Below are positions 1,096 to 44,100 of a DNA stretch of 64,000 nucleotides, piece by piece. The notes under the pieces are model-generated. The model did no database searches, had not been told where the DNA came from, and saw nothing but the letters and a program-made list of their open reading frames with translations. Made by a program: the position numbers and the translations under genes. Each line of letters begins with the position of its first letter. Position 1 is the first letter of the stretch. This DNA comes from a bacterium (GTDB lineage: Bacteria > B130-G9): positions 7,994 to 71,993 of the forward strand of contig DATLAJ010000114.1 of the NCBI GenBank assembly GCA_035527515.1. Direction: 5' to 3'.

Positions 1096-3129
1096 ATGAG
1101 AACAGCATTTGTATGTGTCATCCTTGCGGCCTTTACCTTGCTGCCGTTGGCAGCGACCGCGGCCCCTACAATCACGATCTACACGGACGCCGACACGTAT
1201 CAGTCCGGCGACACGATTGAGGTGAGCCTTTCGGCTGAGAATGACGGTGAAGGGATGGCCGTTGACCTATATGTGGGAATCATCTTGCCAGACGGGGACA
1301 TCTGGTCCACGCAATACGATGGCTGGAGGCATCTCATCGAGCCGTGGGTCCCGGATATCTACGTGCCCGCCTGGTTCGAGATGGGAACTACCCCGTTTTG
1401 GACCTTCAACCTGCCGTGCGAAGTACCACCTGTAGGAGATGCAGGCGATTATGCCTTTGCTGCGCTCTTAACCTACCCAGGCACATTCACCTATGTGAGC
1501 ACGGCCAGCCTGACCCCGTTCACAGTGAATGCGACAGGATCGCATTACTATGTCAACGGCTCGACAGGTGACGACTCCAGCAAGGGATCGTTCGGCTCTC
1601 CCTGGAAAACGATAGCCCACGCCCTGGCGTCGGTTGAGGGCTCCGAGGACAATCCCGTGACGATTCATATCGTCCATGGCACCTATGCCACCTCAACCAA
1701 TGGCGAGACGTTCCCCCTCAACATGAGTAGTCATGTATCCCTTACAGGTGATGGCCCTAGCACCACGACTCTGGACGCGGAGGGCTCGGCCTACCACGTC
1801 ATCTACTGCGATGGTGCAAACAACCTCACCATAGAGAATGTCACAATAACTGGTGGCAATGCTAATGGCAGTTCATACCCGGATTGGAGTGGCGGCGGGA
1901 TATTCTGCTATAAGAGTTCGCCGACGATCGCAAACAGCACGATCTCAAACAACACTACTGACACCGGCGGCGGGGGGATTTACTGCTCGGACAGTTCGCC
2001 CATCATCTCAAACAACACGATCTCGGGCAACTCGGCCGACTACACCGGCGGCGGGATATGCTGCTGGGGTGGTTCACCGATGATCGAGAACAACACGGTT
2101 TCGGGCAACACTGTTTCGGCCGGCGACGGCGGCGGGATATACTGCTACGGAAGTTCGCCGACCATCAAGAACAATACGATCACGGGCAACAGAACCAGCG
2201 GCTCCTACACCTATGGCGGCGGGATATACTGCGAGGGCGGTTCGCCGACCATCAAGAACAACACGATCACAGGTAACAGTGCCAACCTCTGGGGCGGCGG
2301 GATATACTGCTCTAACAGTTCGCCGACGATTGAAAACAACATAATCACGGACAACAGTGCTTACTGCGGCGGCGGGATATGCTGCGAGAACGATTCGCCG
2401 ACTATCTCAAACAATACGATCACGGGCAATAGTGCCGACCGCGGCGGCGGGATAGCCTGCTATTGGTACAGTTCGCCGATGATTGAGAACAACACAATCA
2501 CGGATAACAGTGCCTACCGCGGCGGCGGGATATTCTGCTACGAGAACAGTTCGCCGATGATTGAGAACAACACAATCACAGGCAACAGTGCCAACTGGTT
2601 CGGCGGCGGGATATACTGCTATAAATGTTCGCCGAGTATCTCAAACAACACAATCACGGGCAACACTGCCGACGACGATGGTGGTGGAATATACTGCTAT
2701 AAAAGTTCGCCGAGGATTGAAAACAACACGATCATTAGCAACTCGGCCTCTTGGGGCGGCGGGATATGCTGCGAGCACTACAGTGCGCCGGTCATCTTCG
2801 ACTGCATCATCTGGGGCAACGGTGACGACCTTTATGACTGCTCGGCAACCTACTGCTGCATTGAGGGCGAGGATGCGGGCGAGGGTAACATCCACGACGA
2901 CCCGATGTTCGTTACAGGTCCCCTGGGGAAATACTATTTGCACCCGGATAGTCTGTGCATAGACGCCGGGCGCATATCGGTTAGCGCCGCGGGCCTTTCT
3001 GACCGGACCACCCAGGCGGACGGCACGCCCGACACGGGGATCGTGGATATGGGCTACCATTATCCTCCCTTAACGCAGTTGGCAGTTGGCAGTTGGCAGT
3101 TGGCCCTGACACAGGAGGCTGTCCTATAA
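1096..3129 (+). CDS. secreted right-handed parallel beta-helix repeat protein (pectin-lyase fold/DUF1565-like) with N-terminal ~115-aa accessory domain
   Basis: Signal peptide MRTAFVCVILAAFTLLPLAATAA. About 15 tandem 22-26 aa coils of the form SSPTIxNNTITGNSAxxGGGIYC, a conserved YHYP motif near the C-terminus, and the capping motif DPMFV...YYLHPDSLCIDAG. RBS aaaagggagcggg lies upstream. Confidence 0.8.
   Translation: MRTAFVCVILAAFTLLPLAATAAPTITIYTDADTYQSGDTIEVSLSAENDGEGMAVDLYVGIILPDGDIWSTQYDGWRHLIEPWVPDIYVPAWFEMGTTPFWTFNLPCEVPPVGDAGDYAFAALLTYPGTFTYVSTASLTPFTVNATGSHYYVNGSTGDDSSKGSFGSPWKTIAHALASVEGSEDNPVTIHIVHGTYATSTNGETFPLNMSSHVSLTGDGPSTTTLDAEGSAYHVIYCDGANNLTIENVTITGGNANGSSYPDWSGGGIFCYKSSPTIANSTISNNTTDTGGGGIYCSDSSPIISNNTISGNSADYTGGGICCWGGSPMIENNTVSGNTVSAGDGGGIYCYGSSPTIKNNTITGNRTSGSYTYGGGIYCEGGSPTIKNNTITGNSANLWGGGIYCSNSSPTIENNIITDNSAYCGGGICCENDSPTISNNTITGNSADRGGGIACYWYSSPMIENNTITDNSAYRGGGIFCYENSSPMIENNTITGNSANWFGGGIYCYKCSPSISNNTITGNTADDDGGGIYCYKSSPRIENNTIISNSASWGGGICCEHYSAPVIFDCIIWGNGDDLYDCSATYCCIEGEDAGEGNIHDDPMFVTGPLGKYYLHPDSLCIDAGRISVSAAGLSDRTTQADGTPDTGIVDMGYHYPPLTQLAVGSWQLALTQEAVL
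3082..3104. repeat. short tandem heptad repeat (GTTGGCA x3) at 3' end of CDS 1096-3129
   Basis: gcagttggcagttggcagttggcc is read directly in the sequence. It encodes the atypical tail QLAVGSWQLAL, which is absent from the paralogs. Confidence 0.6.
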
Positions 3130-3272
3130 GTGCATCTGCATGGAAGAATCCCTGTGTTGAAGGATGCCTGACCCTGGATGTAGGGGCGGTTCACGAACCG
3201 CCCGACCTCAGCGCCACAACAGATTGTGGGCGATTCGTGAATCGCCCCTACAAAAAACACGCCTGGCTCCTT
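3128..3272. repeat. ~145-bp structured repeat element, copy A (inverted partner at 11132-11279); contains a nested 74-bp palindrome
   Basis: About 95% identical to the reverse complement of 11132-11279. The core is tgtaggggcggttcacgaaccgccc...gggcgattcgtgaatcgcccctaca, with outer arms TGTAGGGGCG/CGCCCCTACA and two 9-bp-stem hairpins. The track ORFs 3060-3260(-) and 11073-11279(+) give near-identical peptides (MFFVGAIHESPTICCGAEVGR...) only because they translate the repeat. Confidence 0.75.
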
Positions 3273-3396
3273 TATTGGACAGCCTCACCGGTCAAGGGGA
3301 CGAAGAGGCGGCAGGGGGGCAATACACCTGCAACTTACAACCTACGGCTGATTTCATCCTTCATCCTTCCGCCTTCATCCTTGCTTGCGACCTGGT

Positions 3397-3425
3397 TTGC
3401 ACAGTTGAGCAGGGGGCGATATGAT
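3397..3425 (+). promoter_or_regulatory. sigma70-like promoter TTGCAC-17-TATGAT upstream of TPR lipoprotein gene
   Basis: ttgcac at 3397-3402, a 17-nt spacer, tatgat at 3420-3425. The gene RBS gggaggcgga lies at 3481-3490. Confidence 0.35.
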
Positions 3426-3491
3426 AAGGTTGAGGCAGGGACATGAGTGGTTTGGGCAGAGTGCAGCGGAGTAAATAAAAGGGAGGCGGAG

Positions 3492-5387
3492 ATGACAAGC
3501 GTTATGAGGAGGCACACGGCTTTGGCGGCGATCGTTGCGATTGCTCTCGTTGGGGTCTTATTGGGTTGCGCAGCAAGGATGGCCGATAGCCAGTGGAAGA
3601 AGGGGATGTCCGCCGAGAGCAAAGGTCGTATCGACGATGCTATCCGGTATTACAGCAAGGCAATAGAGCTGAATCCTGAGCACAAGACAGCATATCGGAT
3701 GCGGGGCACACTCTACTTGATGGAGAAGAAGGAGTATGACCTTGCCATAGCGGACCTCTCGAAAGCTCTCGAGATCGATCCTTCGGACGTGGATTGTCTC
3801 ATCAACCGAGGCGTCGCATATCGCAAGAAAGGAGAGTATGGCAAATCTATTGCCGATCTGACCAGGGCGATTGAACTCAAGCCCGATTCGTTTCACGCCT
3901 ACCAGGCACGGGCAAACGCCTTAAGACGCATGGAGCGATATGACGAGGCGATTGCGGATTACGATGAGGCGATAGAGCTTAAGCCTCGTAGTGCGAAGGC
4001 CTTTTTGAATCGAGGTGTGGCCTATCACAAGAAGGGTGATTTTGAGCATGAGATCAGAGACTACTCCAGCGCCCTTCAGATCGACCCCCAATACCTGACA
4101 GCGCTTGATAATCGGGGTTTGGCCTACACTAGTACAGGTCAACTGGACGACGCCATTGCTGACTACTCCAGGATAATCTCGATAGACCCGCAGCGTGCGA
4201 CGGCATACATGGGTAGCGCCTGGGCGATGTGCCTGTCGGGCAAGTTCGAGGACGCGCTGGTTGACGCCAGCAAGGCGATAGAGCTCGATCCGCAGGACCC
4301 TGACGCCCTAGACACGAGGGGCTACGCCTATGCCGGTCTTGGCCACCACGAGAAGGCCATAGCCGACTATGATAAGGCAATTGACTTAAAGCCGGACCTC
4401 GTCAGCGCGCGCATTCACAGGGCAGAGAGTCTCGCAGCGATCGGGAAGTTCGACGCCGGTCTCCTCGATGCCAATAAAGCGATCGAGCTCGATGCCGAAA
4501 GCGCCCACGCTTACGACGCCAGAGGCAACGTTTATGCTGAGATGGGCCAATACAAAGAGGCGCTTGCGGATTACGACAAGGCGATAGCGCTCAAGCCGGG
4601 CTACGCGGAGGCGTTCTTTCACCGGGCCAAGCTTCATTATGCGCACGCCCTCCTTGACAAGGCACTCGCCGACTACGCCGGGGCGATCGCGCTTGACCCG
4701 CACAGAGCGGACTTTTTTCTGGCCCGCGGGCCCCTTTACGAGGACCGGGAAATGTTTGGGGCTGCAATCGCGGATTACACGAGCGCAATAGCCGCCGAAC
4801 CAACTTGCTCAGAAGCGTATCTCAGGCGAGGGTTCGTCTATTTCACACAGGGAAAGTTCAAACGCGCCGTCGCGGATTACAACGTTGCGATACAGATCGA
4901 TCCCCAATGTGACCAGTGTTACATGGGCCGTGCCCAGGCCTGCGCCTCGCTGCGCCTCAACGACGAGGCGATCAGGAGTTGCGACAAGGCTATCGAGATC
5001 AGCCCGGGCAGTTGGGAGGCGTTCCAGCTGCGTGGCTCGTGTCATCTGGAGAAGGGGGAGTTTGCGGCGACGGTCTCAGACTGCGGCAGGGCAATCGAGC
5101 TTAACCCTCAGTGCAGCGAGGCATACAACAATCGAGGGTTCGCCAGGGCCGCTCTGGGGCAAGTGAAGGAATCGCTCGAGGACTACGGATGTGCGGTAGA
5201 GTTGAACCCGACGTTCGCTGATGCCTACTTCAACATGGCCACGGTTTATGAGGCGATCGGGGAAATTGATCAGGCTATTCGGGCCTATAAGCTGTTTGTT
5301 CGATATGCGCCTCCAGAGCGCAGCGGGAGCGTTCGGAACGCCAGAATAAAGGTCCTGGAACTGGCGAGGCGCAAGGGTCGGGAGTAA
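3492..5387 (+). CDS. tetratricopeptide-repeat lipoprotein
   Basis: Start refined to ATG 3492 (MTSVMRRHTALAAIVAIALVGVLLGC, lipobox LLGC) with a good RBS; the track's 3447 start adds 15 unlikely residues. It has more than 14 canonical TPR units (AIxxYxKAIELxP... repeated). Confidence 0.8.
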   Translation: MTSVMRRHTALAAIVAIALVGVLLGCAARMADSQWKKGMSAESKGRIDDAIRYYSKAIELNPEHKTAYRMRGTLYLMEKKEYDLAIADLSKALEIDPSDVDCLINRGVAYRKKGEYGKSIADLTRAIELKPDSFHAYQARANALRRMERYDEAIADYDEAIELKPRSAKAFLNRGVAYHKKGDFEHEIRDYSSALQIDPQYLTALDNRGLAYTSTGQLDDAIADYSRIISIDPQRATAYMGSAWAMCLSGKFEDALVDASKAIELDPQDPDALDTRGYAYAGLGHHEKAIADYDKAIDLKPDLVSARIHRAESLAAIGKFDAGLLDANKAIELDAESAHAYDARGNVYAEMGQYKEALADYDKAIALKPGYAEAFFHRAKLHYAHALLDKALADYAGAIALDPHRADFFLARGPLYEDREMFGAAIADYTSAIAAEPTCSEAYLRRGFVYFTQGKFKRAVADYNVAIQIDPQCDQCYMGRAQACASLRLNDEAIRSCDKAIEISPGSWEAFQLRGSCHLEKGEFAATVSDCGRAIELNPQCSEAYNNRGFARAALGQVKESLEDYGCAVELNPTFADAYFNMATVYEAIGEIDQAIRAYKLFVRYAPPERSGSVRNARIKVLELARRKGRE

Positions 5388-5442
5388 CTCGCTGGCGCTA
5401 CAAGATGCACGAAATCGCACTCACATGAATCCTATGCTATTA

Positions 5443-6564
5443 TCAGAACGCCCCACTAGAAGGGTGCTCCGCCGATTCTTTTGGTGAGTTGTCCCGGACC
5501 GCGGCGACATGTTTCTCAAGGTAGGCAAGCGTCTTCAGCGCTAGGATGAGGCCCATTGCAAGAATGATGAGGATTAAAAAACTGTATTTGAACGGAATGA
5601 GAACCGTTATGAAAGCGATAACGCCGAGGTATGCTGAGACAAAGTAGATAAGGACAACGGCCTGTCGCTGGGAGAGGCCAAGCGTAAGGAGCCTGTGATG
5701 TAGGTGCTCGCGGTCGGCCTTGAAGGGGTGAGTTCCGCGAAAGAGCCTTCTGAGAAAGGCGAGTCCCGTGTCCATCAGCGGAACCGCCATTGAGGTGATT
5801 GGGACGAGCAGGGCGACAGCGACGGTGCTCTTGGACGCTCCGAGCAGGGACATGGCCGCAAAGATGAAGCCGAGGCACATACTTCCCGTATCGCCCATGA
5901 AGATGCTTGCGGGAAAGAAGTTGAATTTGAGGAAGCCGAGGACGGCGCCTGCGACCGCGACGGAGAGCAAGCCGATCTGATAATCACCCCTGTAAATTGT
6001 AACGGACATCAAAGTCAGCGACGCTATGAAGACGACGCCCGCTGCGAGACCGTCGAGTCCATCGATTAGGTTCACCGAGTTAGTCAAACCGACAACCCAA
6101 AGCACGGTGAGCATCACTCCGACGGCAGCGGGGACGGCGATTGAGCCGGTCTGCGAAAGCGGAGAGGTGAACTTCTCTATGCCGAACCCGTAGAGAATGA
6201 GCACGATTGATGCGATAATCTGCCCCACGAGTTTCAAGGTAGGTCGCAAACCCTTGATGTCGTCGTAGATGCCCACACCCATCACGATGAGGCATCCGAT
6301 GAACATGCCGGTCAGCTTGCGTGCGAGCGCGTTGCTGGGATCAGGGCACAGCTGAAGGCCGAGCAGCGCCGAGATGCCAAACGCGGCGATTATCGCGATG
6401 CCGCCGAGCGACGGGATAGGTTTTGAATGGACCTTTCTATGGCTAGGAAAGTCCATGGCGCCAATGCGCCTCGCCAGCGCCCTGACAATGGGCGTGAGCA
6501 CGAGAGAGACGGCGACGCCGGTCGCAAAGACCGCTGCGTATGTCAGTAAGAGGGTCATTAGCAT
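5443..6564 (-). CDS. UDP-GlcNAc/MurNAc:undecaprenyl-phosphate sugar-1-phosphate transferase (GT4 MraY/WecA family)
   Basis: Polytopic membrane protein with the family hallmark NSVNLIDGLDGLAAG and the DD.xG / GDTGS motifs (FMGDTGSMCLG). Confidence 0.8.
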   Translation of the reverse strand: MLMTLLLTYAAVFATGVAVSLVLTPIVRALARRIGAMDFPSHRKVHSKPIPSLGGIAIIAAFGISALLGLQLCPDPSNALARKLTGMFIGCLIVMGVGIYDDIKGLRPTLKLVGQIIASIVLILYGFGIEKFTSPLSQTGSIAVPAAVGVMLTVLWVVGLTNSVNLIDGLDGLAAGVVFIASLTLMSVTIYRGDYQIGLLSVAVAGAVLGFLKFNFFPASIFMGDTGSMCLGFIFAAMSLLGASKSTVAVALLVPITSMAVPLMDTGLAFLRRLFRGTHPFKADREHLHHRLLTLGLSQRQAVVLIYFVSAYLGVIAFITVLIPFKYSFLILIILAMGLILALKTLAYLEKHVAAVRDNSPKESAEHPSSGAF

Positions 6565-6622
6565 GTCCCTCGATACGCTTTCGAGTCGGTGGGTTCAGAA
6601 GCAGAATCAGGATATGTCCTGT

Positions 6623-7975
6623 TCATTGGAGCTCGGTCCAGACTTGCTCCGGCCTGCCAAGAAGGATCCTGTCGATGGCCTCCTTGCCCTGCATAAACGA
6701 GTGATCGGTGTTGCCTATCTCGTAGCGCCAGCCGCCAAATCTGCCCCTCGACAGGATATTGTGTGATTCAAGGAACTCGAGCACCGTCCTGAGATTCTGG
6801 TTCCTGTCAAGCGTCGGGACGGGATAGGAGTGGCTCAGTTTGATGACTTTTGTGCTGACTAGGCCGTCAACATCTTGAGTCGCAATGAGGCCGGCGGCGA
6901 TGAGCCCATCGAGCGCGCTTTCAACGGCGCTGCGAGCGACATTATCGAGCTCGTGTGGTTGGCAGGAGACCTCGCAGACGAGGGAGTGGTGGTCTGCATC
7001 GGGGACGTTGTTCGGGGAGTAGTTTGAGAAATAGGTAACGCGGTAGAAGGGTGAATTGTCCTCCGGAAAATACATCCAGCACTTGTCGCTTGGACATGGG
7101 TTCCGGAAGCCCAGACCGACCATGACACCCGCGGTGGTCCCGAGCCTTGAGGCGGCGTCCCGCACAGCGTCAGGCGCGACTCGAGTAATCGCTGCGAGCT
7201 CGTCCAGAGGTACGCTGGTCAGCAGGGCGTCAAAAGTGGTTCGCACGCCGTTTTCAAACTCGAGCGTCCTCGAGTTGAGGTCCAGAGCGATGAGGCGATG
7301 GTTCAAATGGAGGTGTTCTTTGACGTGCTGTCGGTAGCCCTCGAACATGGCCCCGGTGCCGCCATTCAGTGGGAACCTGAACTTGCTGTTGGGACCCCAG
7401 CCCACATCGTCTTTCTGAAGGACAACGTTGCCAAGTACCCTCTCGAAATCGATGACGCTGACGCGCTCCGCTATCCAGTCTTTCGACATTCTCTCCAACG
7501 GAAACTTCCAGGCCATGTTGTTGTAGGGGACCATGAAATGCCTCGCAATGCCTCTTCCGAAGACTGCGTCGATCCATTCACGGAAGTTAGAGGAACGATG
7601 GCTGTCTCGGGACGCCTCGAACAGGCCGACTAGGCACTCGAGGACGATTTCTTTCGGCAGGTAGCGGATGTTGTTCTGGAACGGATATGGAACCCACTTG
7701 TCGTAGATTCTTATGAAGCTTCGCCGCTCGTGAGAGAGGTAATCGTCGCCCAGAACGCTGTCAACGTAGCGGTCGAAGTAGTCGTAGTGGGAGAACACAA
7801 CGTGGCCGCCGACGTCCCAGACGAAGCCCTTGTCATCCGTGAAAGACGCCGCCAGGCCGCCTAGGTAACCGTTCTGCTCGTAGATGTCCCAGCTCTCGTG
7901 GCCCAGCTCGTTGAGCCGGTAGGCGGCGCCGATGCCCGTCGGCCCCGCGCCAACGATTACGATCTTTTTGCTCAA
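6623..7975 (-). CDS. FAD/NAD(P)-binding oxidoreductase (UDP-galactopyranose mutase/amine-oxidase-like fold)
   Basis: N-terminal Rossmann motif KIVIVGAGPTGIGAAY, then E(x)NGYLGGLAASF. TTG start at 7975. The specific substrate was not determinable from sequence. Confidence 0.6.
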   Translation of the reverse strand: MSKKIVIVGAGPTGIGAAYRLNELGHESWDIYEQNGYLGGLAASFTDDKGFVWDVGGHVVFSHYDYFDRYVDSVLGDDYLSHERRSFIRIYDKWVPYPFQNNIRYLPKEIVLECLVGLFEASRDSHRSSNFREWIDAVFGRGIARHFMVPYNNMAWKFPLERMSKDWIAERVSVIDFERVLGNVVLQKDDVGWGPNSKFRFPLNGGTGAMFEGYRQHVKEHLHLNHRLIALDLNSRTLEFENGVRTTFDALLTSVPLDELAAITRVAPDAVRDAASRLGTTAGVMVGLGFRNPCPSDKCWMYFPEDNSPFYRVTYFSNYSPNNVPDADHHSLVCEVSCQPHELDNVARSAVESALDGLIAAGLIATQDVDGLVSTKVIKLSHSYPVPTLDRNQNLRTVLEFLESHNILSRGRFGGWRYEIGNTDHSFMQGKEAIDRILLGRPEQVWTELQ

Positions 7976-8146
7976 CTATTCGTCCTTGTTTGCAGGTGGG
8001 CGGCGAAATGCCTCGCGCATCTTCGACATTATTTCGATTTTCTCGGCAAAAGGAAGCCTAGACAGCTGCTTCCTTACTTTGTCTCTCTCCTCACTGAAGA
8101 CTTTCCAGAATTGCTGTGAGTCTTTGATATAGAGGAGTTTCTTCAC
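7976..8146 (-). CDS. small basic ORF (56 aa), stop codon directly abutting the TTG start of the downstream oxidoreductase
   Basis: Minus-strand GTG start at 8146. Translation is VKKLLYIKDSQQFWKVFSEERDKVRKQLSRLPFAEKIEIMSKMREAFRRPPANKDE. It is below the 60-aa track cutoff, has a GAGG-like RBS 9 nt upstream and clean lysine-rich composition. Confidence 0.3.
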   Translation of the reverse strand: MKKLLYIKDSQQFWKVFSEERDKVRKQLSRLPFAEKIEIMSKMREAFRRPPANKDE

Positions 8147-8411
8147 TGTCGAACCTCTTCACTTCTGTCTTGCGTCAATAGCGCTCATACTCGGGGCTAA
8201 CTGTATCAGGTTTTCCGGGCGTGTCAGCAGATCATTTTGGGGTGTTGTCTAAATCTCACACGCTGCCATTCTATCAGAACAAGCAAAAACGGTGTCTAAA
8301 CGGCCAGTTTAGTCTGAATCTGCTCTCTCCCTTGGGAGTCTCCCTTGGGAGAGAGCTCATTCAAGTAACTTCGAAGACGTCCGAGGCGCCGGCTAATCCG
8401 TCGGTTTTTTT

Positions 8412-9419
8412 CTAGCTCTGCGCCAGCAAAGATGTGATCGCGGCCAGAACGACAATATCGTTTGCTGAACAGCCCCGCGAGAGATCGTTCACCGGTGCAC
8501 CCAGCCCCTGCGCAATCGGGCCGAACGCCTCCGCGCCGCCGAGGCGCTGAACCAGTTTGTAACTGATGTTAGCTGCGTTGAGATCGGGGAAGATGAGGAC
8601 GTTGGCGTGGCCAGCGACCGTGCTGCCGGGCGCCTTCTTGGCTCCGACTTTCTCGACAATGGCGGCGTCAGCCTGAAGCTCGCCGTCGATGGCAAGGTCT
8701 GGCGCCTTCTCCTGAGCGAGCTTCGTCGCCTCGATGACCTTATCGACCGTTGGATGCTTGGCGCTTCCCTTGGTTGAGAAGGAGAGCATCGCGACCACTG
8801 GTTCGACGCCGATGAGAGCCTTGTATGTGCTCGCCGAGGAGACGGCTATGTCCGCCAGCTGCTCTGCTGTGGGGTCAGGCACAAACGCCGGGTCAGAGAA
8901 GATGAGTATCTTGTCCTCGCCGCACGAGGATTTGGGCACCACCATGATCATGGAGCTCGAGACCACCTTGCAGCCCGCCCGTGTGCCAACCACATGGATT
9001 GCGGCTCTCAGGACGCTGCCTGTGCTGTGACATGCGCCGGTTACCATTCCGTCCGCCATGCCCTTCCTGATCATCATCGCGCCGAAGTAAAGGCTGCCAA
9101 GCTCAGCACTCGTCAGAAGACCTCTCGCCTCATCAGGCGTCATGCCCTTGGCCTTCCGAATCTCATAGAGCGCGTTCCCGAAATCCTCGATCTTGTCGCT
9201 CTTCATAAAATCAAATATCTCGACCCCGCTGAAGTTCAGGTTCTGCTTCCGGGCCTCGGCCAATATCTCGTCCTTCGGGCCGAGGATTGTAACGCCGCAT
9301 ATCTCCTCCTTGACAAGAGTAGCGGCCGCCTCGACCATTCGCGGGTCAGGCCCCTCGCCGAGAACGATCTGCATCTTCCTCGCGCGTGCTCGCCTTTTCA
9401 GCTGTTCAACCAAATCCAT
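8412..9419 (-). CDS. pta: phosphate acetyltransferase
   Basis: Full-length match to the PTA_PTB family: MVTGACHSTGSVLR, VAMLSFSTKGSAKHP, DGELQADAA, FPDLNAANISYKLVQRLG, PVNDLSRGCS. Confidence 0.9.
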   Translation of the reverse strand: MDLVEQLKRRARARKMQIVLGEGPDPRMVEAAATLVKEEICGVTILGPKDEILAEARKQNLNFSGVEIFDFMKSDKIEDFGNALYEIRKAKGMTPDEARGLLTSAELGSLYFGAMMIRKGMADGMVTGACHSTGSVLRAAIHVVGTRAGCKVVSSSMIMVVPKSSCGEDKILIFSDPAFVPDPTAEQLADIAVSSASTYKALIGVEPVVAMLSFSTKGSAKHPTVDKVIEATKLAQEKAPDLAIDGELQADAAIVEKVGAKKAPGSTVAGHANVLIFPDLNAANISYKLVQRLGGAEAFGPIAQGLGAPVNDLSRGCSANDIVVLAAITSLLAQS

Positions 9420-9453
9420 CTGTGTCCTCCTAAGTATTCATACATAAACAACG

Positions 9454-10473
9454 CTATCTTCTCTCAACGTACTGCTTCTCGTAATATCTAGCGAGGCGCT
9501 GCTTGATCTTCCGCCACCACTCAGGGTGACTCTCATACCACAGAACCGTCTCCCTAATCCCATCCTCGAACTCGACCTTCGGCGCCCAATTGAACATATT
9601 CCGCAACTTGTCGCTGTTGACCGCGTGCCTAAGGACGTGCCCTGGCCTGTCAACGACGAACTCGATGAGCTCCTTCGGCTTGCTGAGCGCTTTGAGTATG
9701 TGGTCGCACATCTGAAGAATCGTAACCTCATGCCCCGAGCTCACGTTGAACACCTCGCCGAAGCAGTCGGCCTTAAGTATTAGAAGCTCCAGAGCGCGGC
9801 AATGGTCCAGCACGTGTATCCAGTCTCGCTTGTTTTGGCCAGTGCCATAGACCGGCAGCGGCCTGTCCTCGATGGCGTTAGTCGTAAACAGCGGAACCAT
9901 TTTCTCCGGCAGCTGGAACGGGCCATAGTTGTTAGAACAGCGCGAGACCAAGACGGGGACCTTGTGCGTCGCCCAGTAGGAATACGCTAGCCTGTCCGCG
10001 CCGGCTTTCGACGCCGCATAAGGGCTCTTGGGCATCAGCGGGTCGCTCTCCAGGCACGGCCTGCCGTGCGCCTCGCCATAGACCTCGTCGGTTGAGATGT
10101 GGATGAATTTCTGAAGGCCGTGGACCTTGGCGCAGTCGAGAAGGACAAATGTCCCGAACACGTCAGTGGTGACGAAGTCGCCGGCGTCCATTACGGACCT
10201 ATCGACGTGCGTCTCGGCCGCGAAGTGCACGATTATATCCGCCCATTTGACCAGCGGATCGACCAGCGCCCTGTCAGCGACATCGCCCTTCACGAAGCGG
10301 TAGTTGGGCTGGCCTTCGACGTCGCTTACGTTCTCGAGATTGCCGGCGTATGTCAGCTTGTCCAGGTTGCACACATACCAATCCGGATGATTAGACATTA
10401 TGTAGCGGATGAAGTTCGAGCCGATGAACCCAGCGCCGCCGGTTACCAGCAGCTTCAAGCCTTCTTGAGACAT
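9454..10473 (-). CDS. rfbB: dTDP-glucose 4,6-dehydratase
   Basis: LLVTGGAGFIGSNFIRY...NLDKLTYAGNLENV and the YSASKAGAD catalytic YxxxK motif (here YAASKAGAD). Length 339 aa. Confidence 0.9.
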   Translation of the reverse strand: MSQEGLKLLVTGGAGFIGSNFIRYIMSNHPDWYVCNLDKLTYAGNLENVSDVEGQPNYRFVKGDVADRALVDPLVKWADIIVHFAAETHVDRSVMDAGDFVTTDVFGTFVLLDCAKVHGLQKFIHISTDEVYGEAHGRPCLESDPLMPKSPYAASKAGADRLAYSYWATHKVPVLVSRCSNNYGPFQLPEKMVPLFTTNAIEDRPLPVYGTGQNKRDWIHVLDHCRALELLILKADCFGEVFNVSSGHEVTILQMCDHILKALSKPKELIEFVVDRPGHVLRHAVNSDKLRNMFNWAPKVEFEDGIRETVLWYESHPEWWRKIKQRLARYYEKQYVERR

Positions 10474-10946
10474 TATCGGTCCTTTCTCGCCCAGTCGTAA
10501 GGTATCTTGGAGCCGTGCGCCGGCAGGCGGTATTCGTCCGGGTTCTCATAGTTATACACCTTGTCAGGGATGTTAATTATGATGCCCTCCTTCTCGCTGA
10601 TGCACATGAATCCATGATACACGCCCCGTGGGATGACAAGCAGAATCGGGTTGTGCTCACCCATGAAGAACTCATTGATCTCTCCTTTTGTGGGCGAATC
10701 CTCACGATCGTCGTATAGCACCACCTTCATCATCCCTGAAACCGCCGCGAAGTGATCGCTCTGATGTTTGTGGTAGTGCCAGGCCTTCACGACGCCCGGA
10801 TAGCCTGTGGTCATGTATGCCTGGCCGAAGTTCGCAAAAAACTCCTCGCCATCATCACTCCTGAGTATCTCCATCAGCCGCCCTCGCTCGTCGGGCATCA
10901 CCTTCAACTTCTTAACCTTAACGCCATCGATCACAATGACCTCCAT
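10473..10946 (-). CDS. rfbC: dTDP-4-dehydrorhamnose 3,5-epimerase (RmlC-like cupin)
   Basis: Start refined to ATG 10946 (MEVIVIDGVKV...); the upstream 41 codons of track ORF 10473-11069 are low-complexity. Motifs PDERGRLMEILR, KAWHYHKHQSDHF and RGVYHGF are present. The 1-nt overlap with rfbB indicates an operon. Confidence 0.85.
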   Translation of the reverse strand: MEVIVIDGVKVKKLKVMPDERGRLMEILRSDDGEEFFANFGQAYMTTGYPGVVKAWHYHKHQSDHFAAVSGMMKVVLYDDREDSPTKGEINEFFMGEHNPILLVIPRGVYHGFMCISEKEGIIINIPDKVYNYENPDEYRLPAHGSKIPYDWARKDR

Positions 10947-11050
10947 ATCTTTATCTGTGCCCAAATACAGTAGCACAGAAGATTCGCAACACGACACGCT
11001 ATTGTCAAACAGTCTTTGTGAGAGGAAGGGGCGCTCCCCGACCCAGGGCG

Positions 11051-11125
11051 GCCTCATCGCACGGCGCAAGCGGTGGCGATGCGAGAGACTATCATTGCCC
11101 TAGCCCCCATCTTCGGAGGTTGTCC
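11051..11125. repeat. degenerate copy (X1) of two-hairpin repeat family X
   Basis: cctcatcgcacggcgcaagcggtggcgatgc...cccccatcttcggagg resembles 22289-22397. The first hairpin is intact and the second is decayed. Confidence 0.5.
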
Positions 11126-11131
11126 AATGAA

Positions 11132-11279
11132 GGGGCCAGGCGTGTTTTTTGTAGGGGCGATTCACGAATCACCCACAATATGTTGTGGCGCTGAGGTCGG
11201 GCGGGACGTGAACCGCCCCTACATCCAGGGCCAGGCATCCTTCAACACAGGGATTCTTCCATGCAGATGCACTTACTAG
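11132..11279. repeat. ~147-bp structured repeat element, copy B (inverted partner of 3128-3272)
   Basis: The reverse complement aligns with 3128-3272 at about 95% identity, including the nested palindrome tgtaggggcgattcacgaatcacccacaatatgttgtggcgctgaggtcgggcgggacgtgaaccgcccctaca. Confidence 0.75.
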
Positions 11280-11623
11280 ACAGCCTCTCTAGTTGGGTGG
11301 TAGCCGATATCCATCTGGTTATCTGGAAAGGAGGGAGTATGGCGTCAAACGCCTCTGGCGTACGTGTCTTGGCGGTCAGGGCGAGCGCGGGCAGTCCGGG
11401 TGTTAGAACTGATCCCGAAATAGTAACCTTGGCCGGGAGGCTCCGGGTCTTGATAGAGCTGAAAGCTGGGAATAAATGCGAGATGGCCAACACTATTCCC
11501 TGTCCGAATAGTCTTGCGGGCGTTGAGATTATATTTTAGCCTTTGAGCCGGGTGTTCTGTTATACTGATAAGTTACAAAGTCGGTGTGCTCTAGTAGCCT
11601 TCAAGTTTGAGGAGTTAAGATAG

Positions 11624-18514: not shown

Positions 18515-18820
18515 ATGTGCTTCGGGGTAAAGGTGGGATTAGGACAACTAGAATCAGGATACCGTGGTTGCATCTTGGGTGTGGCGATCGGGGTCGCTTT
18601 TGGCGCACCAGTTGAGTTTTTGCGCCTGCACGAGATAAGACAGCAGTTTGGCGAGCGCGGCGTTCAGAATTTCAACAGTTATCGAGGTTTTGCGGCTGGC
18701 TCTTACACCGACTATGCACAGATGACGCTCGCTACTGCGCGGGTGCAGCATGGAATCTTAGATTGTAAGTCCAACCCGTCTCGGCTGGCGCTTAGCTACG
18801 CTTGCGGACGTAGAAGATGA
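18515..18820 (+). pseudogene. N-terminal fragment of ADP-ribosylglycohydrolase (DraG/ARH family), truncated
   Basis: GCILGVAIGVAFGAPVEF...GSYTDYAQMTLA matches the ARH N-terminal signature G.LLG.AVGDALGAPVEF...YTDDTQM, with substitutions at the two metal-binding Asp sites. Only ~100 of ~300 aa are present, and the 3' end runs antisense into the methyltransferase gene. Confidence 0.5.
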
Positions 18821-22197: not shown

Positions 22198-22288
22198 GTC
22201 CCGGCTCTATGGCTTTCGACTAAAATCAGTTAGCAGCCTTAATCTATAGCCCCGGCTGGGCATGGTCAATGGGGATGAGAGAGAGAGG

Positions 22289-22397
22289 CCACATCATCGC
22301 CCGGCGCAAGCGGTGGCGATGCAGCCGGCTACCATTTTGATTAACCCCCATCTTCAGATGGGGGATGTGCGGCACACAAAGACCTCGCCTCTATCCC
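22289..22397. repeat. repeat family X copy X2: two-hairpin element
   Basis: Hairpin 1 is CATCGCCCGGC-gcaa-GCGGtGGCGATG (GNRA loop). Hairpin 2 is CCCCCATC-ttca-GATGGGGG, followed by gtgcggcacac. About 90% identical to 22740-22828. Confidence 0.55.
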
Positions 22398-22627
22398 ATT
22401 CAGATGAGGATTCCGGGAAGGAAGGAGAGGGAGGGGGGCGCCTCGGCCTCCTCAGATCACCCGACTGAAGTCGGGTGCTAATACAATGAGAGCCATCTGT
22501 ATCACCGCGTTAAAACGCAGTGATTAGGCCAGCGGGAGGTGTGGGGCGGGCTTTCTAGCCTGCCTTTCCTTCGCGGAGGTCACGCTGGCTAGCTCATCCA
22601 CCCGGAGTAAGCGGCATGTGAGGGCTA

Positions 22628-22828
22628 CCTCATCGCCCGGCGCAACCGACACTTGAGGCCACATCGCCCGGCGCAACCGACACGCGCGAGCACATCATCG
22701 CCCGGCGCAACCGACACTTGAGGCCACATCGCCCGGCTTCAGCCGAGGCGATGCAGACGGTTACCATTTTCATTAACCCCCATCTTCAGATGGGGGATGT
22801 GCGGCACACCGAGACCTCCCCTCTATCC
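22628..22828. repeat. repeat family X copy X3 with 3.5 tandem ~32-bp sub-repeats (atcgcccggcgcaaccgacac + 10-13 nt) followed by the two-hairpin element
   Basis: The unit catcgcccggcgcaaccgacacttgaggcca recurs at 22630, 22661, 22694 and 22727. Then catcgcccggcttcagccgaggcgatg and cccccatcttcagatggggg are read directly. Confidence 0.55.
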
Positions 22829-22845
22829 TCTTCAATGGACCTCGA

Positions 22846-32105: not shown

Positions 32106-32173
32106 ATCCCCTTGCGGGGATGCGGGAAGAACGCCGTCAGTTGAGCAGGCCCGGGCACGATTACGAAAACTCA
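32106..32173. repeat. conserved 68-bp upstream element, copy Y1
   Basis: atccccttgcggggatgcgggaagaacgccgtcagttgagcaggcccgggcacgattacgaaaact is about 90% identical to 33844-33910, with the terminal hairpin flipped (ccccTTGCgggg versus ccccGCAAggg). Confidence 0.6.
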
Positions 32174-32187
32174 TCCCAGATGCCAGG

Positions 32188-32216
32188 TTGACACATTCTT
32201 GCCGACTCGCTATAAA
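32188..32216 (+). promoter_or_regulatory. sigma70-like promoter TTGACA-17-TATAAA for B12-binding radical SAM gene
   Basis: Perfect -35 ttgaca (32188-32193), a 17-nt spacer, tataaa (32211-32216), 15 nt downstream of element Y1. Confidence 0.45.
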
Positions 32217-32264
32217 CTGCTCTCGCAAGCACACATCAGAGCACTTAAAGATGAGACTAGACAG

Positions 32265-33704
32265 GTGAAGAATCGCGATATTAGGATACTTTTTGTGAAC
32301 CCCGGCCGGGGTATCTACGACATGCCGCCGTTGGGTGTCTGCTACTTGAGTTCCTATCTTAAAAAGTATGGGACCAACACATACAAGACTGTTCTCGCCG
32401 ATGAATACGCTGGACACAATCCGATCAAGGTGGCGAGACAGTTTGAGCCTGATATTATCGGCTTTTCGAGCGCGACAGCCCAGTATCACAGAGCCACCCG
32501 GCTGGCCAGAAAAATGCGAAGGTTCTCAAATGCACCTCTCGTCATCGGCGGGCTGCATCCGACTGCTCTGCCAGAGCAGGTCATCAAGGAGGGCTTCTTC
32601 GATATCGCTGTCGTCTCCGAGGCGGAGCGCTCCTTCACACACCTGGTCGATGCTCTTGCCGCCTCGGGCTTTGCGCTCGACAGCGGCGTGCTGCGGCAGA
32701 TTCCGGGCATAGCGTTCAGGTCTGACGATGAGATTGTGCTCACTGAGCCGCCGAAGTTCATCGATGACCTCGATACGATCCCCTTCCCAGACAGGTCTCT
32801 GCTCGACCTTACGCACTACCTCCATCGCAACGCCGCTATCCGGAGCATGATCACCAGAAACACGACGCTAATGACGTCGCGAGGCTGTCCGTTTAGGTGC
32901 ATATACTGCATCTCAGTGCATCGGCGCCAGCTTCGCGAACACTCGCCCGAATACGTCATAGAGGAGATGCAGAGCTTGGTTCGGGACTACAACCTTGAGG
33001 GGCTTTGTATAATCGACGACACCTTCATCTTTGACGGGAAGCGGGCCTCGCGCATCGCCGAGCTAATGCTCCAGACAGGAATCGCACGACGGCTCAAGTG
33101 GCCGTGTTACGGACGGGCCAACATCGTCAGCAGGTGCGAGGATTCCTTCATCAACCTCCTCAAGAAGGCGGGCATGGCCCAGATGGAGTTCGGCTTCGAG
33201 AGCGCCTCAAAACGAGTGCTTCAGTTCCTCAAAGGCAAGGGCGTAACCCCTGAAGACAACGAGGCCACGCTCGACCGGCTGGAACGCCTCAATGTCCGGG
33301 CGCTCGCGACATTTCTGACCGGAGTGCCAACCGAGACTGCCGAAGAGAGCAGAATGACCGTGGAGTTCATTCGCCGAAACTTCGAGCGGCTGGCATACTT
33401 TGAGATACTTTATTTGGTCCCGTACCCCGGCACGAGGGTCTGGGAGATGCACCACATGGATGACATCATCTCGCCCAACCTGTGGCAAAACTACAAGATC
33501 GGCCTGAACAAGAGGTTCCCCGTCGATTCAGAGTTCACAAGGAACATCGATTACGAGACTGCCACCAAGGCTGTCAATGAGGTCATGTCGATGATGGTCA
33601 AAAAACAGAAGCTCACGTATAACCTTCGCTTCCTGCGAGACCGGTTGAGGATTGCCCCACTCGACACTGTCAAGAAAGTCGCCGCACATTTCCTTGGCCG
33701 GTAG
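32265..33704 (+). CDS. B12-binding-domain radical SAM protein (class B)
   Basis: GTG 32265 start (VKNRDIRILFVNP...) is preferred over the track's TTG 32199, which would place the promoter inside the gene. It has an N-terminal cobalamin-binding-like domain and a radical SAM CxxxCxxC site SRGCPFRCIYC. Confidence 0.8.
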   Translation: MKNRDIRILFVNPGRGIYDMPPLGVCYLSSYLKKYGTNTYKTVLADEYAGHNPIKVARQFEPDIIGFSSATAQYHRATRLARKMRRFSNAPLVIGGLHPTALPEQVIKEGFFDIAVVSEAERSFTHLVDALAASGFALDSGVLRQIPGIAFRSDDEIVLTEPPKFIDDLDTIPFPDRSLLDLTHYLHRNAAIRSMITRNTTLMTSRGCPFRCIYCISVHRRQLREHSPEYVIEEMQSLVRDYNLEGLCIIDDTFIFDGKRASRIAELMLQTGIARRLKWPCYGRANIVSRCEDSFINLLKKAGMAQMEFGFESASKRVLQFLKGKGVTPEDNEATLDRLERLNVRALATFLTGVPTETAEESRMTVEFIRRNFERLAYFEILYLVPYPGTRVWEMHHMDDIISPNLWQNYKIGLNKRFPVDSEFTRNIDYETATKAVNEVMSMMVKKQKLTYNLRFLRDRLRIAPLDTVKKVAAHFLGR

Positions 33705-33843: not shown

Positions 33844-33910
33844 ATCCCCGCAAGGGCATGCAGGAAGAACGTCGTCAGTCGAGCAGGTCCGGGTACGATT
33901 ACGAAAACTT
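33844..33910. repeat. conserved 68-bp upstream element, copy Y2
   Basis: atccccgcaagggcatgcaggaagaacgtcgtcagtcgagcaggtccgggtacgattacgaaaact lies about 95 nt upstream of nth. Track ORFs 32094-32489(-) and 33739-34323(-) merely translate it. Confidence 0.6.
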
Positions 33911-41189: not shown

Positions 41190-44100
41190 TTATCTCACCG
41201 TGCCAGTGATTGTGAAAGGCACTGAATCGACGGATATGAAGTTGGAGCCTATTGCGCCGGATTCGGCGAGCGCCGCGGCGTAGATGTAAGAGCCCGGCTC
41301 AACGTGCGGGACGCTCAGCTCGAAGACCATCTCAGGCCCGAAGCTGAAGCCCGTGGGCAGAACCCAATCCACAGCCCACGGCCAGAGCCCGAAGCCGAAA
41401 CCCTCCTCGACGAGGCAGATAATTGAGCCATCCGGCAGGATAAAGCCGACGAACGCGTCCACCGTCATCTCGGGACCCTCGTTCACGACTTCAAGATAGG
41501 CCTGCATCAGATCGCCGGCCGCGAACTCGTCCGCGTTCAGCGAGCAGAACACCTCCGCCTCAATCGGCGCCCCCGGAATCGGATAATGGAATCCCATATC
41601 GACAGTCCCGGTGTCGGGCGTCCCGTCAGCCTGAGTCGTCCTGTCGGCCACGCCCGCCTCGTGAGACCATCTGTCGCCTCCATCGATGCAAGGGCTATTC
41701 GGGTGCAGGTAATAGTCCCCGAATGGGCCGGGGACAAACATCGGGTCGCCATAGATATTCCCCTCGCCCTCGTTACCATCCTTGATGCAGCAGTAGCTCG
41801 TGGAGCATCCGGATAGGTCGTCATCATTGCCCCAGATGATGCAGGCTTCAATGGTTGGATTGCCTTCCCTCTCAGAATAGATACCACCGCCTGCGCCGGA
41901 TTCCGCTGCCGAGTTACCAACTATAGTGTTATTAGTGATGCTTGGCGAGCTATGAGAGCTGCAGTATATACCTCCGCCATCGAAACCAAACCGCCCGTAC
42001 ACCTCATTCCCGATAATCAAGTTGTTTGAAATGGTTGGCGAACTGAGTGCGCAGTGTATTCCGCCTCCATGCTTGTCCGCTCTGTTATCGGTGATCGTGT
42101 TGCCCGAGATCGTTGGCGAACTCTGGCTCAGATACATACCGCCGCCGTCGTCCCATACGGAGTTGCTCCTTATTTCGTTTTCCACGATCGTCGGGGAACT
42201 GTGCTCGCAGTAAATGCCTCCACCGTTGCCCCATGAGGAGTTACCCGTTATCGTGTTGGCCTCGATCGTCGGCGAACTATCATTTTCGCAGCAAATACCT
42301 CCACCAATTCCGCCAGCATCGGTGTCATTTGTGCTGATGATGTTGCCGGAGATCAGAGGTGAGCTCTCATCGCAGAGTATGCCTCCGCCGAACGTGCACC
42401 CGTGATTGTTGGCGATCGTGTTATCCATGATTGTCGGCGAGGAGTACTTGCAGCATATCCCTCCACCACCACCAATATCCGTTCCGGGTGGATAAACAAT
42501 GTTATATGTGATGGTGTTACTTGAGATTATGGGGGAGCTCTGCTCACAGTACACCCCGGCGCCGAACTGATATGCCCAGTTGTTTAATATGGTGTTCTGT
42601 TCAATAAGGGGCGAGCTGTCCCCCTCGCAATAGACTCCGCCTCCCGACCCGTACACGTCATTGAAAGAGATGGTGTTATAGAGGATGGTTGGAGAGCTCT
42701 CGACGCAGCAGATGCCGGCGCCGTAGTCGCGCGATGCGTTGTCGCTGATTGTGTTGCTTATGATGTCTGGTGCGCTGTCGCGGCAGTATATGGCACCGCC
42801 GTTGACCGCGTGGTTATCCGTTATTATGTTGCTCTGGATTCGCAAAGAGCTGTTGACGCAATACACTGCCCCGCCGGACTGATCAGCCTCCGACTCACCA
42901 TAGGCCGAGCCGCCGGTCATCGTGAGGTCCTCCACAATGACGTTCTCCACATCAATGCAGCGAATTATATGATAGGCGGAGTACTCCCCGTCGAGAATGG
43001 TTGTGTCGGCGCCGGCGCCTGAGATGGACACGAGGCTTCTCATCGTGAGAGGGTAGATCTCGCCGTTCGTGGTCGCCGAATACGTGCCGGCCGCAACGTG
43101 GATGACCGCCGGACTCGTTTGGGAGACCACGGCTAAACCCAGGGCGCAGCTAATAGTCTTGAACGGTGCGTTGAGGGAGCCATCGCCCAAATCATCGCAG
43201 GCCTGGCCATTCACGTAGAGGTGCTGCGTACCCTCAGCCCAAATCACAAGCCTTTCAGTGGCCGGCTCCGACCACTGAGAATCATCGTCCTGAACCCGCA
43301 ATGAAATAGTTTGCGTGCCTAGCGAAAGACCGGCTGCTGGTTTTTGAAAGCTCTTCTCAGAAGATAAAACGCCGTCCAGGTTGGAACTCCATTGGTAAGC
43401 CTCGATTCCCCCATCCTTGTCGGTGCCATGGCCGCGGAATTCAATTGTGTCCCTGCCGTATATCGCGGGATTCGGCGATATCGAATCGATGTAGGCCACC
43501 GGTCTCGGAAACTGAGCCTCAATGACGAGCTTTTCGGTAGCCGCTTCTGACCAGACGCCCAAATTGTCCCGCACTTTGTAGGAGATGATGTGCGAGCCCA
43601 ATTCCAGCCACGATGCGGGGTAGCTGAAGCGGTTGTTGGTGCTGAGAATCCCTTCGAGGTCGGAGGACCATTCGTGCCTCTGCACGGCCCCGTCAGTATC
43701 GGTCCCGTGCCCGACGAATCGAATCGTGTCCATGTGTTGTGTAGCCGGATTGGGCAATATCGAATCGATATGTGCGATCGGTCGTTCGCCTGCCGGGATA
43801 GGGTAGTGATAGCCCATATCGACCGTGCCGGTGTCCGGGGTGCAGTCGTCCTGCGTCGTCCGGTCGGAGAGCCCGGCCTCTTCTGCCGACATGCTGCCGG
43901 CGTCTATACAAGGACTCTCCGGGTCGAGGTAGTAATCACCAAACGGTCCGGTCGTGAACATCGGATCGCATTCGATATTCCCCTCGCCGGAATAAAGGCC
44001 GTATCCCTGCCAGACGCAGCAATACGTCGGCGTTCCGATGTTATGATTGGTTTGACCTATGAAGATGCAATCCCGGACATCAATGCGGCCATCTTCGTTC

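Follow-up and report, generated by a model that had tools for sequence, protein, structure and literature searches.

An inverted pair of 172-nt palindromic elements

We analysed a 64,000-nt stretch of bacterial DNA (the window), positions 7,994 to 71,993 of contig DATLAJ010000114.1 in assembly GCA_035527515.1 (GTDB lineage B130-G9). Near the left end of the window, a beta-helix gene is followed by a block of six genes and then by a carbamoyltransferase gene, and the block is bracketed by two oppositely oriented copies of a 172-nt element, here called A and B, which are the subject of this work (Table 1). The adjoining carbamoyltransferase finds its best homologue, at 92% identity, under the name Candidatus Coatesbacteria. 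The first-pass annotation of this DNA had reported an inverted pair of a structured element around six genes, and both parts of that description hold. A gapless comparison of the window places the inverted arms 7,829 nt apart, and Pfam identifies the six genes as a TPR gene, a wecA-like GT4 gene (Glycos_transf_4), a gene for an FAD amine-oxidase-like oxidoreductase, pta (PTA_PTB), and rfbB-like and rfbC-like genes. The details of the pair are different. The boundaries given at first (3128-3272 and 11132-11279, a length of about 147 bp) cut the element short at both ends, the identity of about 95% becomes 161 of 172 bases by direct count (93.6%, with no indels), and copy A, said to begin at the stop codon of the beta-helix gene, begins 12 nt upstream and in frame. 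That each copy is by itself nearly palindromic had gone unmentioned.

Both copies are imperfect palindromes in which the 10-nt outer ends (GAGGCTGTCC...GGACAGCCTC) pair together. Their core consists of two hairpins of the repetitive extragenic palindrome (REP) kind, each tagged with GTAG and set head-to-head: GTAG-GGGCGGTTCACGAACCGCCC, a 24-nt spacer, and GGGCGATTCGTGAATCGCCC-CTAC. The REP stem has 8-9 bp and the loop 2-4 nt, and GTAG directly abuts GGGCG... in all four REP units of the window. Inside one element, the left REP unit is the G..C stem variant and the right one is the A..T variant. Outside the GTAG feet the element extends into arms of 65 and 35 nt, which end in its own 10-nt inverted repeat. 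The left arm carries about 30 extra nucleotides, which makes the element asymmetric, so that A (+ strand) and B (- strand) are truly oppositely oriented. The RNA fold of copy A with 10 nt on each side (3105-3295) has a free energy of -87.7 kcal/mol (z = -7.3) and the single-stranded DNA fold of the 172-nt element one of -43.5 kcal/mol (z = -6.9); RNA and DNA folds alike close element A end to end. Shuffled windows give zero matches to the 24-nt core in any shuffle. Rfam has no match at gathering score in the whole window, and on the element itself it gives only chance-level matches (E > 1).

Table 1. Features of the locus, in window coordinates, and (last four lines) open reading frames (ORFs) resembling REP-associated tyrosine transposases (RAYTs) in loci from other genomes, in the coordinates of each locus. 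REPIN, REP doublet forming a hairpin.
Feature	Position	Strand	Remarks
Beta-helix gene (Beta_helix / NosD / DUF1565)	1096-3129	+	C-terminus completed by element A
Element A, REPIN-type palindromic repeat, 172 nt	3115-3286	+	Identified by comparison, fold and self-palindrome
Left terminal inverted repeat of A, GAGGCTGTCC	3115-3124	+	Pairs with 3277-3286; boundary identical in all four copies
Left REP unit of A, GTAG and hairpin GGGCGGTT-CACG-AACCGCCC	3180-3203	+	G..C stem variant
Spacer of the REP dimer, 24 nt, GACCTCAGCGCCACAACAGATTGT	3204-3227	+	Kept in all copies and in sister lineage AUK292
Right REP unit of A, inverted; + strand reads GGGCGATT-CGTG-AATCGCCC-CTAC	3228-3251	-	A..T stem variant
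Right terminal inverted repeat of A, GGACAGCCTC	3277-3286	+	
Block of 7.8 kb: TPR, GT4, FAD oxidoreductase, pta, rfbB-like, rfbC-like	3287-11115		Identified by Pfam and synteny
Truncated family-X hairpin repeat, unrelated to the element	11047-11115	+	Loop of its second hairpin broken off exactly where element B ends
Element B, 172-nt copy opposite to A	11116-11287	-	161/172 identical to A
Right REP unit of B, GTAGGGGCGATTCACGAATCACCC read on the + strand	11151-11174	+	
Left REP unit of B, GTAGGGGCGGTTCACGTCCCGCCC on the - strand	11199-11222	-	Stem partly degraded
Probable decayed 3' end of a beta-helix paralogue	11288-11449	-	Suggested by motif, spacing and reading frame
RAYT-like Y1 transposase ORF, locus L030	239-847		
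RAYT-like Y1 transposase ORF, locus L076	640-1206		
RAYT-like Y1 transposase ORF, locus L082	6401-6925		
RAYT-like Y1 transposase ORF, locus L084	140-691		

A family of full-length copies with common ends

A metagenome scan with the spacer sequence returns two further full-length copies, L103 and L104, both in sample 3300031566, the same metagenome. The first-pass annotation had considered the case that only A and B exist; at least four copies are known. All four (A, B, L103 and L104) are exactly 172 nt long, have identical ends and differ by no indels. The number of identical bases out of 172 is 161 for A and B, 159 for A and L103, 160 for A and L104, 156 for B and L103, and 171 for L103 and L104. 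Thus A, 92-93% identical to L103 and L104 and 94% identical to B, is no closer to B than to copies elsewhere, and A and B are not a special pair. The spacer varies at 1-3 positions among the four copies. L103 and L104 sit 3' of paralogous genes for PMT-like membrane proteins, and their far-side neighbours differ, being an OsmC-like gene for one copy and a PSP1-like gene for the second. The L103 contig has the GC content of the window, and its tetranucleotide correlation with the window (r = 0.93) is like that of known Coatesbacteria relatives. A duplicated segment that comprises the 3' end of the PMT-like gene and the element is seen at about 10409-12070 of L103 and about 143-2527 of L104; within it the element is 99% identical and the adjoining coding DNA 78-98% in windows of 100 nt. 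A recent duplication, two strains, or a homogenised element are all possible sources of this likeness.

The sister lineage AUK292, a metagenome-assembled genome, has a version of about 133 nt with the same ends and spacer and without the insert in the left arm. AUK292 also has a 73%-identical orthologue of the oxidoreductase. The density of the family appears low, with two REP dimers in the 64-kb window and another two in the metagenome of sample 3300031566. A BLAST search of plasmids and phages with the element gives no match, nor does the REP-doublet pattern in viral contigs. Comparing the flanks of the copies, a check that the first-pass annotation had proposed, we find no target-site duplication (CACAG...ACCGG, CTAGA...CGAAG and GGTTT...TGGAA).

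The REP core in other genomes and its associated transposases

We scanned 185,579 GTDB species genomes with the pattern GGGGCGRTTCACG-N25-55-CGTGAAYCGCCCC, which does not include the flanking GTA...TAC, and obtained 95 loci (L008-L102) with 90 distinct doublets. The hosts are Clostridia, Gallionella, Nitrosomonadales, Chloroflexia, Anaerolineae, Desulfobacteraceae, Desulfuromonadales, Vampirovibrio, Wirthbacteria and AUK292. Two properties of these doublets stand out. The GTA...TAC flank is present in 80 of the 90 although the pattern leaves it unconstrained, and the variable position of the stem covaries, G with C in 9/9 cases and A with T in 80/81. The spacers of the doublets are 25-55 nt long and differ between genomes, and other genomes show 4-6 or more strict matches each. 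The 24-nt REP, GTAGGGGCG(A/G)TTCACGAA(T/C)CGCCC, is nearly invariant across at least seven phylum-level groups (Bacillota, Pseudomonadota, Chloroflexota, Desulfobacterota, Vampirovibrio, Wirthbacteria and Coatesbacteria). A full-text search of the literature found no paper with this REP sequence.

Clustering of the ORFs in the 95 loci shows no gene family that recurs generally beside the doublet, save for RAYT-like ORFs in four to five loci. In four genomes (Gallionella, Desulfuromonadales, Clostridia and Desulfobacteraceae) these ORFs are 175-203 aa long (Table 1). They match Pfam Y1_Tnp, two of the four above the cut-off, and by eye they carry the motifs NH[FLI]H, WQ and Y-[IM]-x-[ND]-N-P (3/4). 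REP doublets flank the ORFs, at 19 and 10 nt from the ORF ends in L076 and similarly in L084, L082 and L030. The REP, or the whole doublet, is also found in frame inside the ORFs just after the HUH motif, where it is translated as VGAIHESP or RAIRESPL. A REP both in frame inside the transposase gene and flanking it is a known signature of TnpA-Y1 subclass 2.4, for which the in-frame REP has already been described (PMC6006769). The four RAYT-like transposases are only 32-50% identical to each other.

The repeated unit built on this REP differs between hosts. In Anaerosolibacter it is the bare REP dimer. In Oscillospiraceae SIG692 (L015, L023, L059 and L079) a unit of about 150 nt is built around the REP dimer and has a terminal inverted repeat of its own, AAATTAGGATTTRTCG; from its sequence, this unit appears to be an independent 'armed REPIN', parallel to the 172-nt unit of Coatesbacteria.

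Taking the anatomy, the family and the transposases together, we consider it quite probable that A and B belong to a low-copy family of the REPIN type, most likely one that works via a trans-acting group-4 RAYT on a folded single strand.

The sites of the two copies

Copy A is joined to the beta-helix gene in a precise way. The first 15 nt of the element (GAG GCT GTC CTA TAA) close the gene with four codons, E-A-V-L, and a stop; position 3115 being in frame, element A supplies these codons and the TAA. The gene stops about 20 codons past the motif DMGYHYP and does not have the C-terminal domain of about 110 aa found in its paralogues, as in the giant beta-helix genes at 41190-47840 (2216 aa) and 47876-49924 (682 aa), which extend about 110 aa past that motif. 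Judging by these sequences, element A, or an event associated with it, appears to have truncated the gene. In the last beta-helix codons, just before element A, there is an array of four GTTGGCA units at 3078-3111 (28 nt, not a multiple of 3). A change by one unit would shift the frame, and of the two other frames one stops at once (TGA) and one crosses the whole element (ORF 3093-3446). The number of units is the same in all assemblies.

On the other side of element A, the TPR gene (3492-5387) has no homologue above 42% identity in a collection of 5.8 billion proteins, and the orthologues of its neighbours are 67-88% identical. By this comparison the TPR gene is probably lineage-specific or very fast evolving. 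An empty A site was also sought by way of homologues of the TPR protein, with no orthologue above 42% identity to work from.

Copy B is intergenic and stands between two divergent genes, the rfbC-like gene (- strand) and the carbamoyltransferase gene (+ strand). The hairpin of another repeat, family X, that the first-pass annotation had placed beside copy B is indeed there, and it ends exactly where the element ends. Full copies of family X are present at about 22287-22400 and 22719-22830. Its hairpins are CATCGCC..GGCGATG and CCCCCATCT-TCAG-AGATGGGGG, and no Rfam family matches them. In the same part of the window, at 22627-22737, there are three tandem copies of CATCGCCCGGCGCAACCGACAC, in a 1.2-kb non-coding stretch after a radical-SAM gene. 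The missing half of the family-X hairpin was searched for as a test for a simple insertion or an inversion between A and B, and has no significant match beside A or beyond the beta-helix relic at B. A match of the right flank of B to family X (GGCTACCA) was judged to be chance.

The beta-helix relic stands on the far side of element B. Read on the minus strand it gives DPEPPGQGYYF ... PDNQMDIGYHP-TREAV-stop with one internal stop. The DMGYH-type motif precedes element B by 12 nt and element A by 57 nt. A six-frame translation of the window contains it, in the form D[IMLV]G[YAF][HYE], only seven times, and the six occurrences apart from the relic are all at the ends of beta-helix modules. About 35 residues upstream of the motif the relic keeps DP....G.YY[FL], and the spacing to G.YY is that of the intact genes. 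These features suggest that 11288-11449 is probably the decayed end of a paralogue, which runs into element B as the intact gene does at A.

This likeness of the two sites invites the explanation that A and B are what is left of a duplicated beta-helix 3' end together with its downstream hairpin, and not independent insertions. Both copies follow D[MI]GYH(Y)P and both end the frame with EAV(L)-stop, in addition to the restriction of the motif to beta-helix genes and the upstream DP....G.YY[FL] of the relic. What speaks against it is the difference in decay. At the DNA level the relic is almost unalignable, while the elements are 94% identical, so that a single old duplication cannot explain the pair. 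Moreover, A is as close to L103 and L104, whose gene context is unrelated, as to B. With both facts in hand, a duplication of equal age cannot account for the identity of the elements without gene conversion or selection; the explanations left for that identity are independent insertion, gene conversion or selection. We regard such a duplication as unlikely. It is partly compatible with a REPIN-type family, since the REPIN could predate the duplication.

One orientation in the junction-spanning contigs

The locus is found in contig k141_1321282 of ENA ERZ27256828, and it is 100% identical in JGI 3300031565/66 and in the Logan assemblies of SRR8554511, SRR8554512 and SRR8554643. These assemblies belong to one sample set, hence they are not independent populations, and the search merges places with the same neighbours. 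Three contigs span the junctions (those of ERZ27256828, Ga0307378_10001443 and Ga0307379_10007045), and all three have one gene order and one orientation. Among the contigs encoding the TPR and rfbC-like proteins we find only the reference arrangement or contigs with the block alone.

Several contigs break at or near the repeats. The end of L007 (3274) and the start of L002 (3273) overlap by 2 nt inside element A (3273-3274), L003 and L004 start at 11213, and L117 spans only 3353-11159. Breaks such as these are the usual outcome of a k-mer assembler at a repeated hairpin, and carry no information on orientation. There are two other breakpoints outside the elements: L002 and L003, from two different assemblers, end at 18604, and three Logan contigs start at 3353, in a low-complexity stretch rich in CATCCTT. 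These positions may be further repeats or strain-variable points.

The first-pass annotation had proposed that the pair marks an invertible segment, a composite insertion or a pair of miniature inverted-repeat transposable elements (MITEs). Only the MITE-like repeat survives of these, and not as a pair; nothing indicates that A and B bound an 8-kb gene block that can invert or move. If A and B were recombination sites, the 7.8-kb envelope/glycan block between them would flip, as in phase variation. The copies are indeed inverted, being asymmetric, with 172 nt at 94% identity and a longest identical run of about 44 nt by eye, the bracketed genes are surface- and glycan-related, and some assemblers do break contigs at the repeats. 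But those breaks are explained by the shared k-mers and the hairpin, and each of the three junction-spanning contigs has the same arrangement. Pfam scans of the larger ORFs find no tyrosine or serine recombinase in the window; these scans and the gene calls support the first-pass statement that the window contains neither a recombinase nor a transposase. In addition, A resembles copies elsewhere as much as it resembles B, and typical invertons are far smaller than this block, which contains housekeeping genes (pta). Like invertons, A and B form an inverted pair around genes, and unlike them they come with no recombinase in the window, a single orientation in the contigs that span a junction, and an interval of 7.8 kb of housekeeping genes. 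We think inversion very unlikely.

The bracketed genes in relatives

The genes of the block are found together in relatives that do not have the repeat. L114, a relative at 67% identity, shares the order rfbC-rfbB-pta-oxidoreductase-GT4, two 73%-identity relatives share the oxidoreductase-GT4 pair, and none of the relatives' loci examined (L107-L114) contains the REP. The first-pass annotation had asked about relatives with the same genes minus the repeat; this is what L114 provides for the five-gene core, of which the TPR gene is not part. The relatives' loci without the element also differ in synteny. From this gene order we take the block genes to be ordinary resident DNA and not cargo.

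A composite transposon or insertion, with the 8-kb block carried as cargo between two copies of a mobile element, is accordingly at odds with the conserved order. Synteny with the closest relative (92% identity), in which a MutS gene stands upstream of the carbamoyltransferase gene, does break near element B, and the TPR gene beside element A has no close homologue anywhere. However, homology to that relative begins only at about 11516, which is not the edge of the element, there is no transposase in the window and no target-site duplication, and the elements are non-autonomous 172-nt units. This origin has next to no probability in our view.

Elsewhere in the window, a 66-nt direct repeat (85% identical) is found at 32106-32171 and 33844-33909. 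Its first copy is upstream of a B12-binding radical-SAM gene (32199-33704), and its second precedes the ORFs that come after; the repeat is possibly a leader or promoter common to them. Against Rfam it gives chance-level matches only.

Finally, it is hardly credible that the element is a cis-acting RNA, selected as a transcript-end hairpin (a terminator or mRNA stabiliser, roles that have been reported for some REPs) and not for mobility: the fold is very stable, A, L103 and L104 are directly 3' of genes, and REPs are described in the literature as mostly downstream of ORFs and with G-U pairing, but terminator and promoter scans at both copies find no terminator-like hairpin with a T-run on either strand, Rfam has no match, B is in a divergent promoter region, and such a role would be secondary for a REPIN and would not give the element another identity. 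The fallback of the first-pass annotation, a chance duplication of a terminator-like sequence, fails too: neither copy has a U-tract terminator, and a GTAG-REP dimer can be recognised in the core.

Discussion

We return to the reading of A and B as members of a REPIN-type family, and compare them with known systems. In published descriptions, REPINs are REP doublets (Bertels & Rainey 2011, PMC3116915) and GTAG-tagged REPs occur as head-to-head dimers with spacers of 20-100 bp (Di Nocera et al. 2013, PMC3733652). As in those descriptions, the element has two inverted REP hairpins with the GTAG feet outside, and a spacer that is inside the 20-100 bp range and conserved among the copies. Also as in REPINs, three G-C pairs stand at the foot of the stem, the element is intergenic, mostly 3' of genes and sometimes overlapping gene ends, it makes no target-site duplication, and it folds as two hairpins or as one long hairpin. 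It is unlike REPINs in its unit of 172 nt, with 65/35-nt arms outside the GTAG feet and a 10-nt inverted repeat of its own, in the number of copies seen (at least four, versus tens to hundreds in Pseudomonas or E. coli), and in its host, Candidatus Coatesbacteria.

The nearest precedent for the long arms are the REP-plus-stem-loop 'double inverted repeats' and terminal-inverted-repeat families of P. putida and P. fluorescens. REPs are there fused to an unrelated flanking palindrome, and the two together act as one longer inverted repeat that recurs as a unit (PMC3733652). Their arms have no relation in sequence to those of our element, and the REPs, intact here, are degenerate there. With MITEs of the DDE type the element shares terminal inverted repeats, small size and the lack of coding capacity; it differs from them in having no target-site duplication and no related insertion sequence.

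On the side of the transposases, REPINs go with a cognate RAYT of group 2 or 3 that is present in one copy and inherited vertically, and that is not what we find here. The RAYTs associated with this REP elsewhere show the features of TnpA-Y1 subclass 2.4 (Quentin et al. 2018, PMC6006769), which is RAYT group 4 (Bertels et al. 2017, PMC5581495, with 'canonical long' REPs), and so the element is REPIN-like in its working but belongs with the less studied group-4 REPs. The likeness extends to the ORF motifs in four genomes, the patchy spread across phyla and the low abundance of the flanking repeats. Unlike in those systems, the association of REP and transposase is known here only from other phyla. 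According to the literature, each tnpA-REP has its own REP family; the one 24-nt REP described here departs from that rule, as it stays nearly the same over at least seven groups while its transposases have diverged.

In this reading the element is a 172-bp non-autonomous palindromic repeat, made of a REP-dimer core and lineage-specific arms that end in the 10-nt terminal inverted repeat. When single-stranded, for example in the lagging-strand template, it would fold as two REP hairpins or as one end-to-end hairpin. The GTAG foot and the stem would then be recognised by a RAYT (TnpA-REP; HUH/Y1, subclass 2.4 / group 4) whose gene would lie in another part of the genome, and this enzyme would cut and rejoin single strands, so that the unit is copied or moved without a target-site duplication. 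Of the copies, A stands at the 3' end of the beta-helix gene, which it overlaps and completes, and B at the 3' end of the probable decayed paralogue, abutting the truncated family-X repeat. The opposite orientation of the two copies would be one of two equally likely outcomes.

Several observations weigh against the RAYT-driven reading. No RAYT gene is found in the window or in the fetched loci of this organism. For the two RAYT-like ORFs submitted to NCBIfam the best match is REP_Tyr_transpos at 60-66 bits, under the curated cut-off of 80. Cleavage by a RAYT at ends so far beyond the GTAG feet is, to our knowledge, undocumented, and the 172-nt unit is longer than classical REPINs. The independent flank contexts known for the 172-nt copies are about three, and because L103 and L104 have flanks in common, like a segmental duplicate, and the DMGYH motif of a beta-helix precedes A and B alike, part of the copy number may reflect duplication and not transposition. 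No allele with an empty site was recovered for A or B, and mobility is thus inferred from the structure of the family.

We also offer, as a tentative picture that we would sooner doubt than assert, a joint reading of the data from all hosts. The REP and its group-4 RAYT might form a horizontally spreading, self-seeding REPtron lineage, in which longer 'armed' units of 150-172 nt with inverted-repeat ends arose in Coatesbacteria and in Oscillospiraceae, and element B might be a real REPIN-associated rearrangement junction, with the truncated family-X repeat on one side and the beta-helix relic on the other.

What is new here is only the host phylum, Candidatus Coatesbacteria, and the long-armed form; the REPIN-type family is otherwise ordinary. 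For the annotation of similar loci, inverted copies of a self-complementary dispersed repeat call for a check of similarity across the whole family before they are called an inverton or a composite transposon. For the biology of these repeats, GTAG-REP/REPIN elements are extended to a candidate phylum, and a long-armed 172-nt form is documented that completes the reading frame of a gene. The element also adds a data point on the spread of group-4 / subclass-2.4 RAYT-REP systems: one REP kept across many phyla, and none on the plasmids, phages and viral contigs searched.

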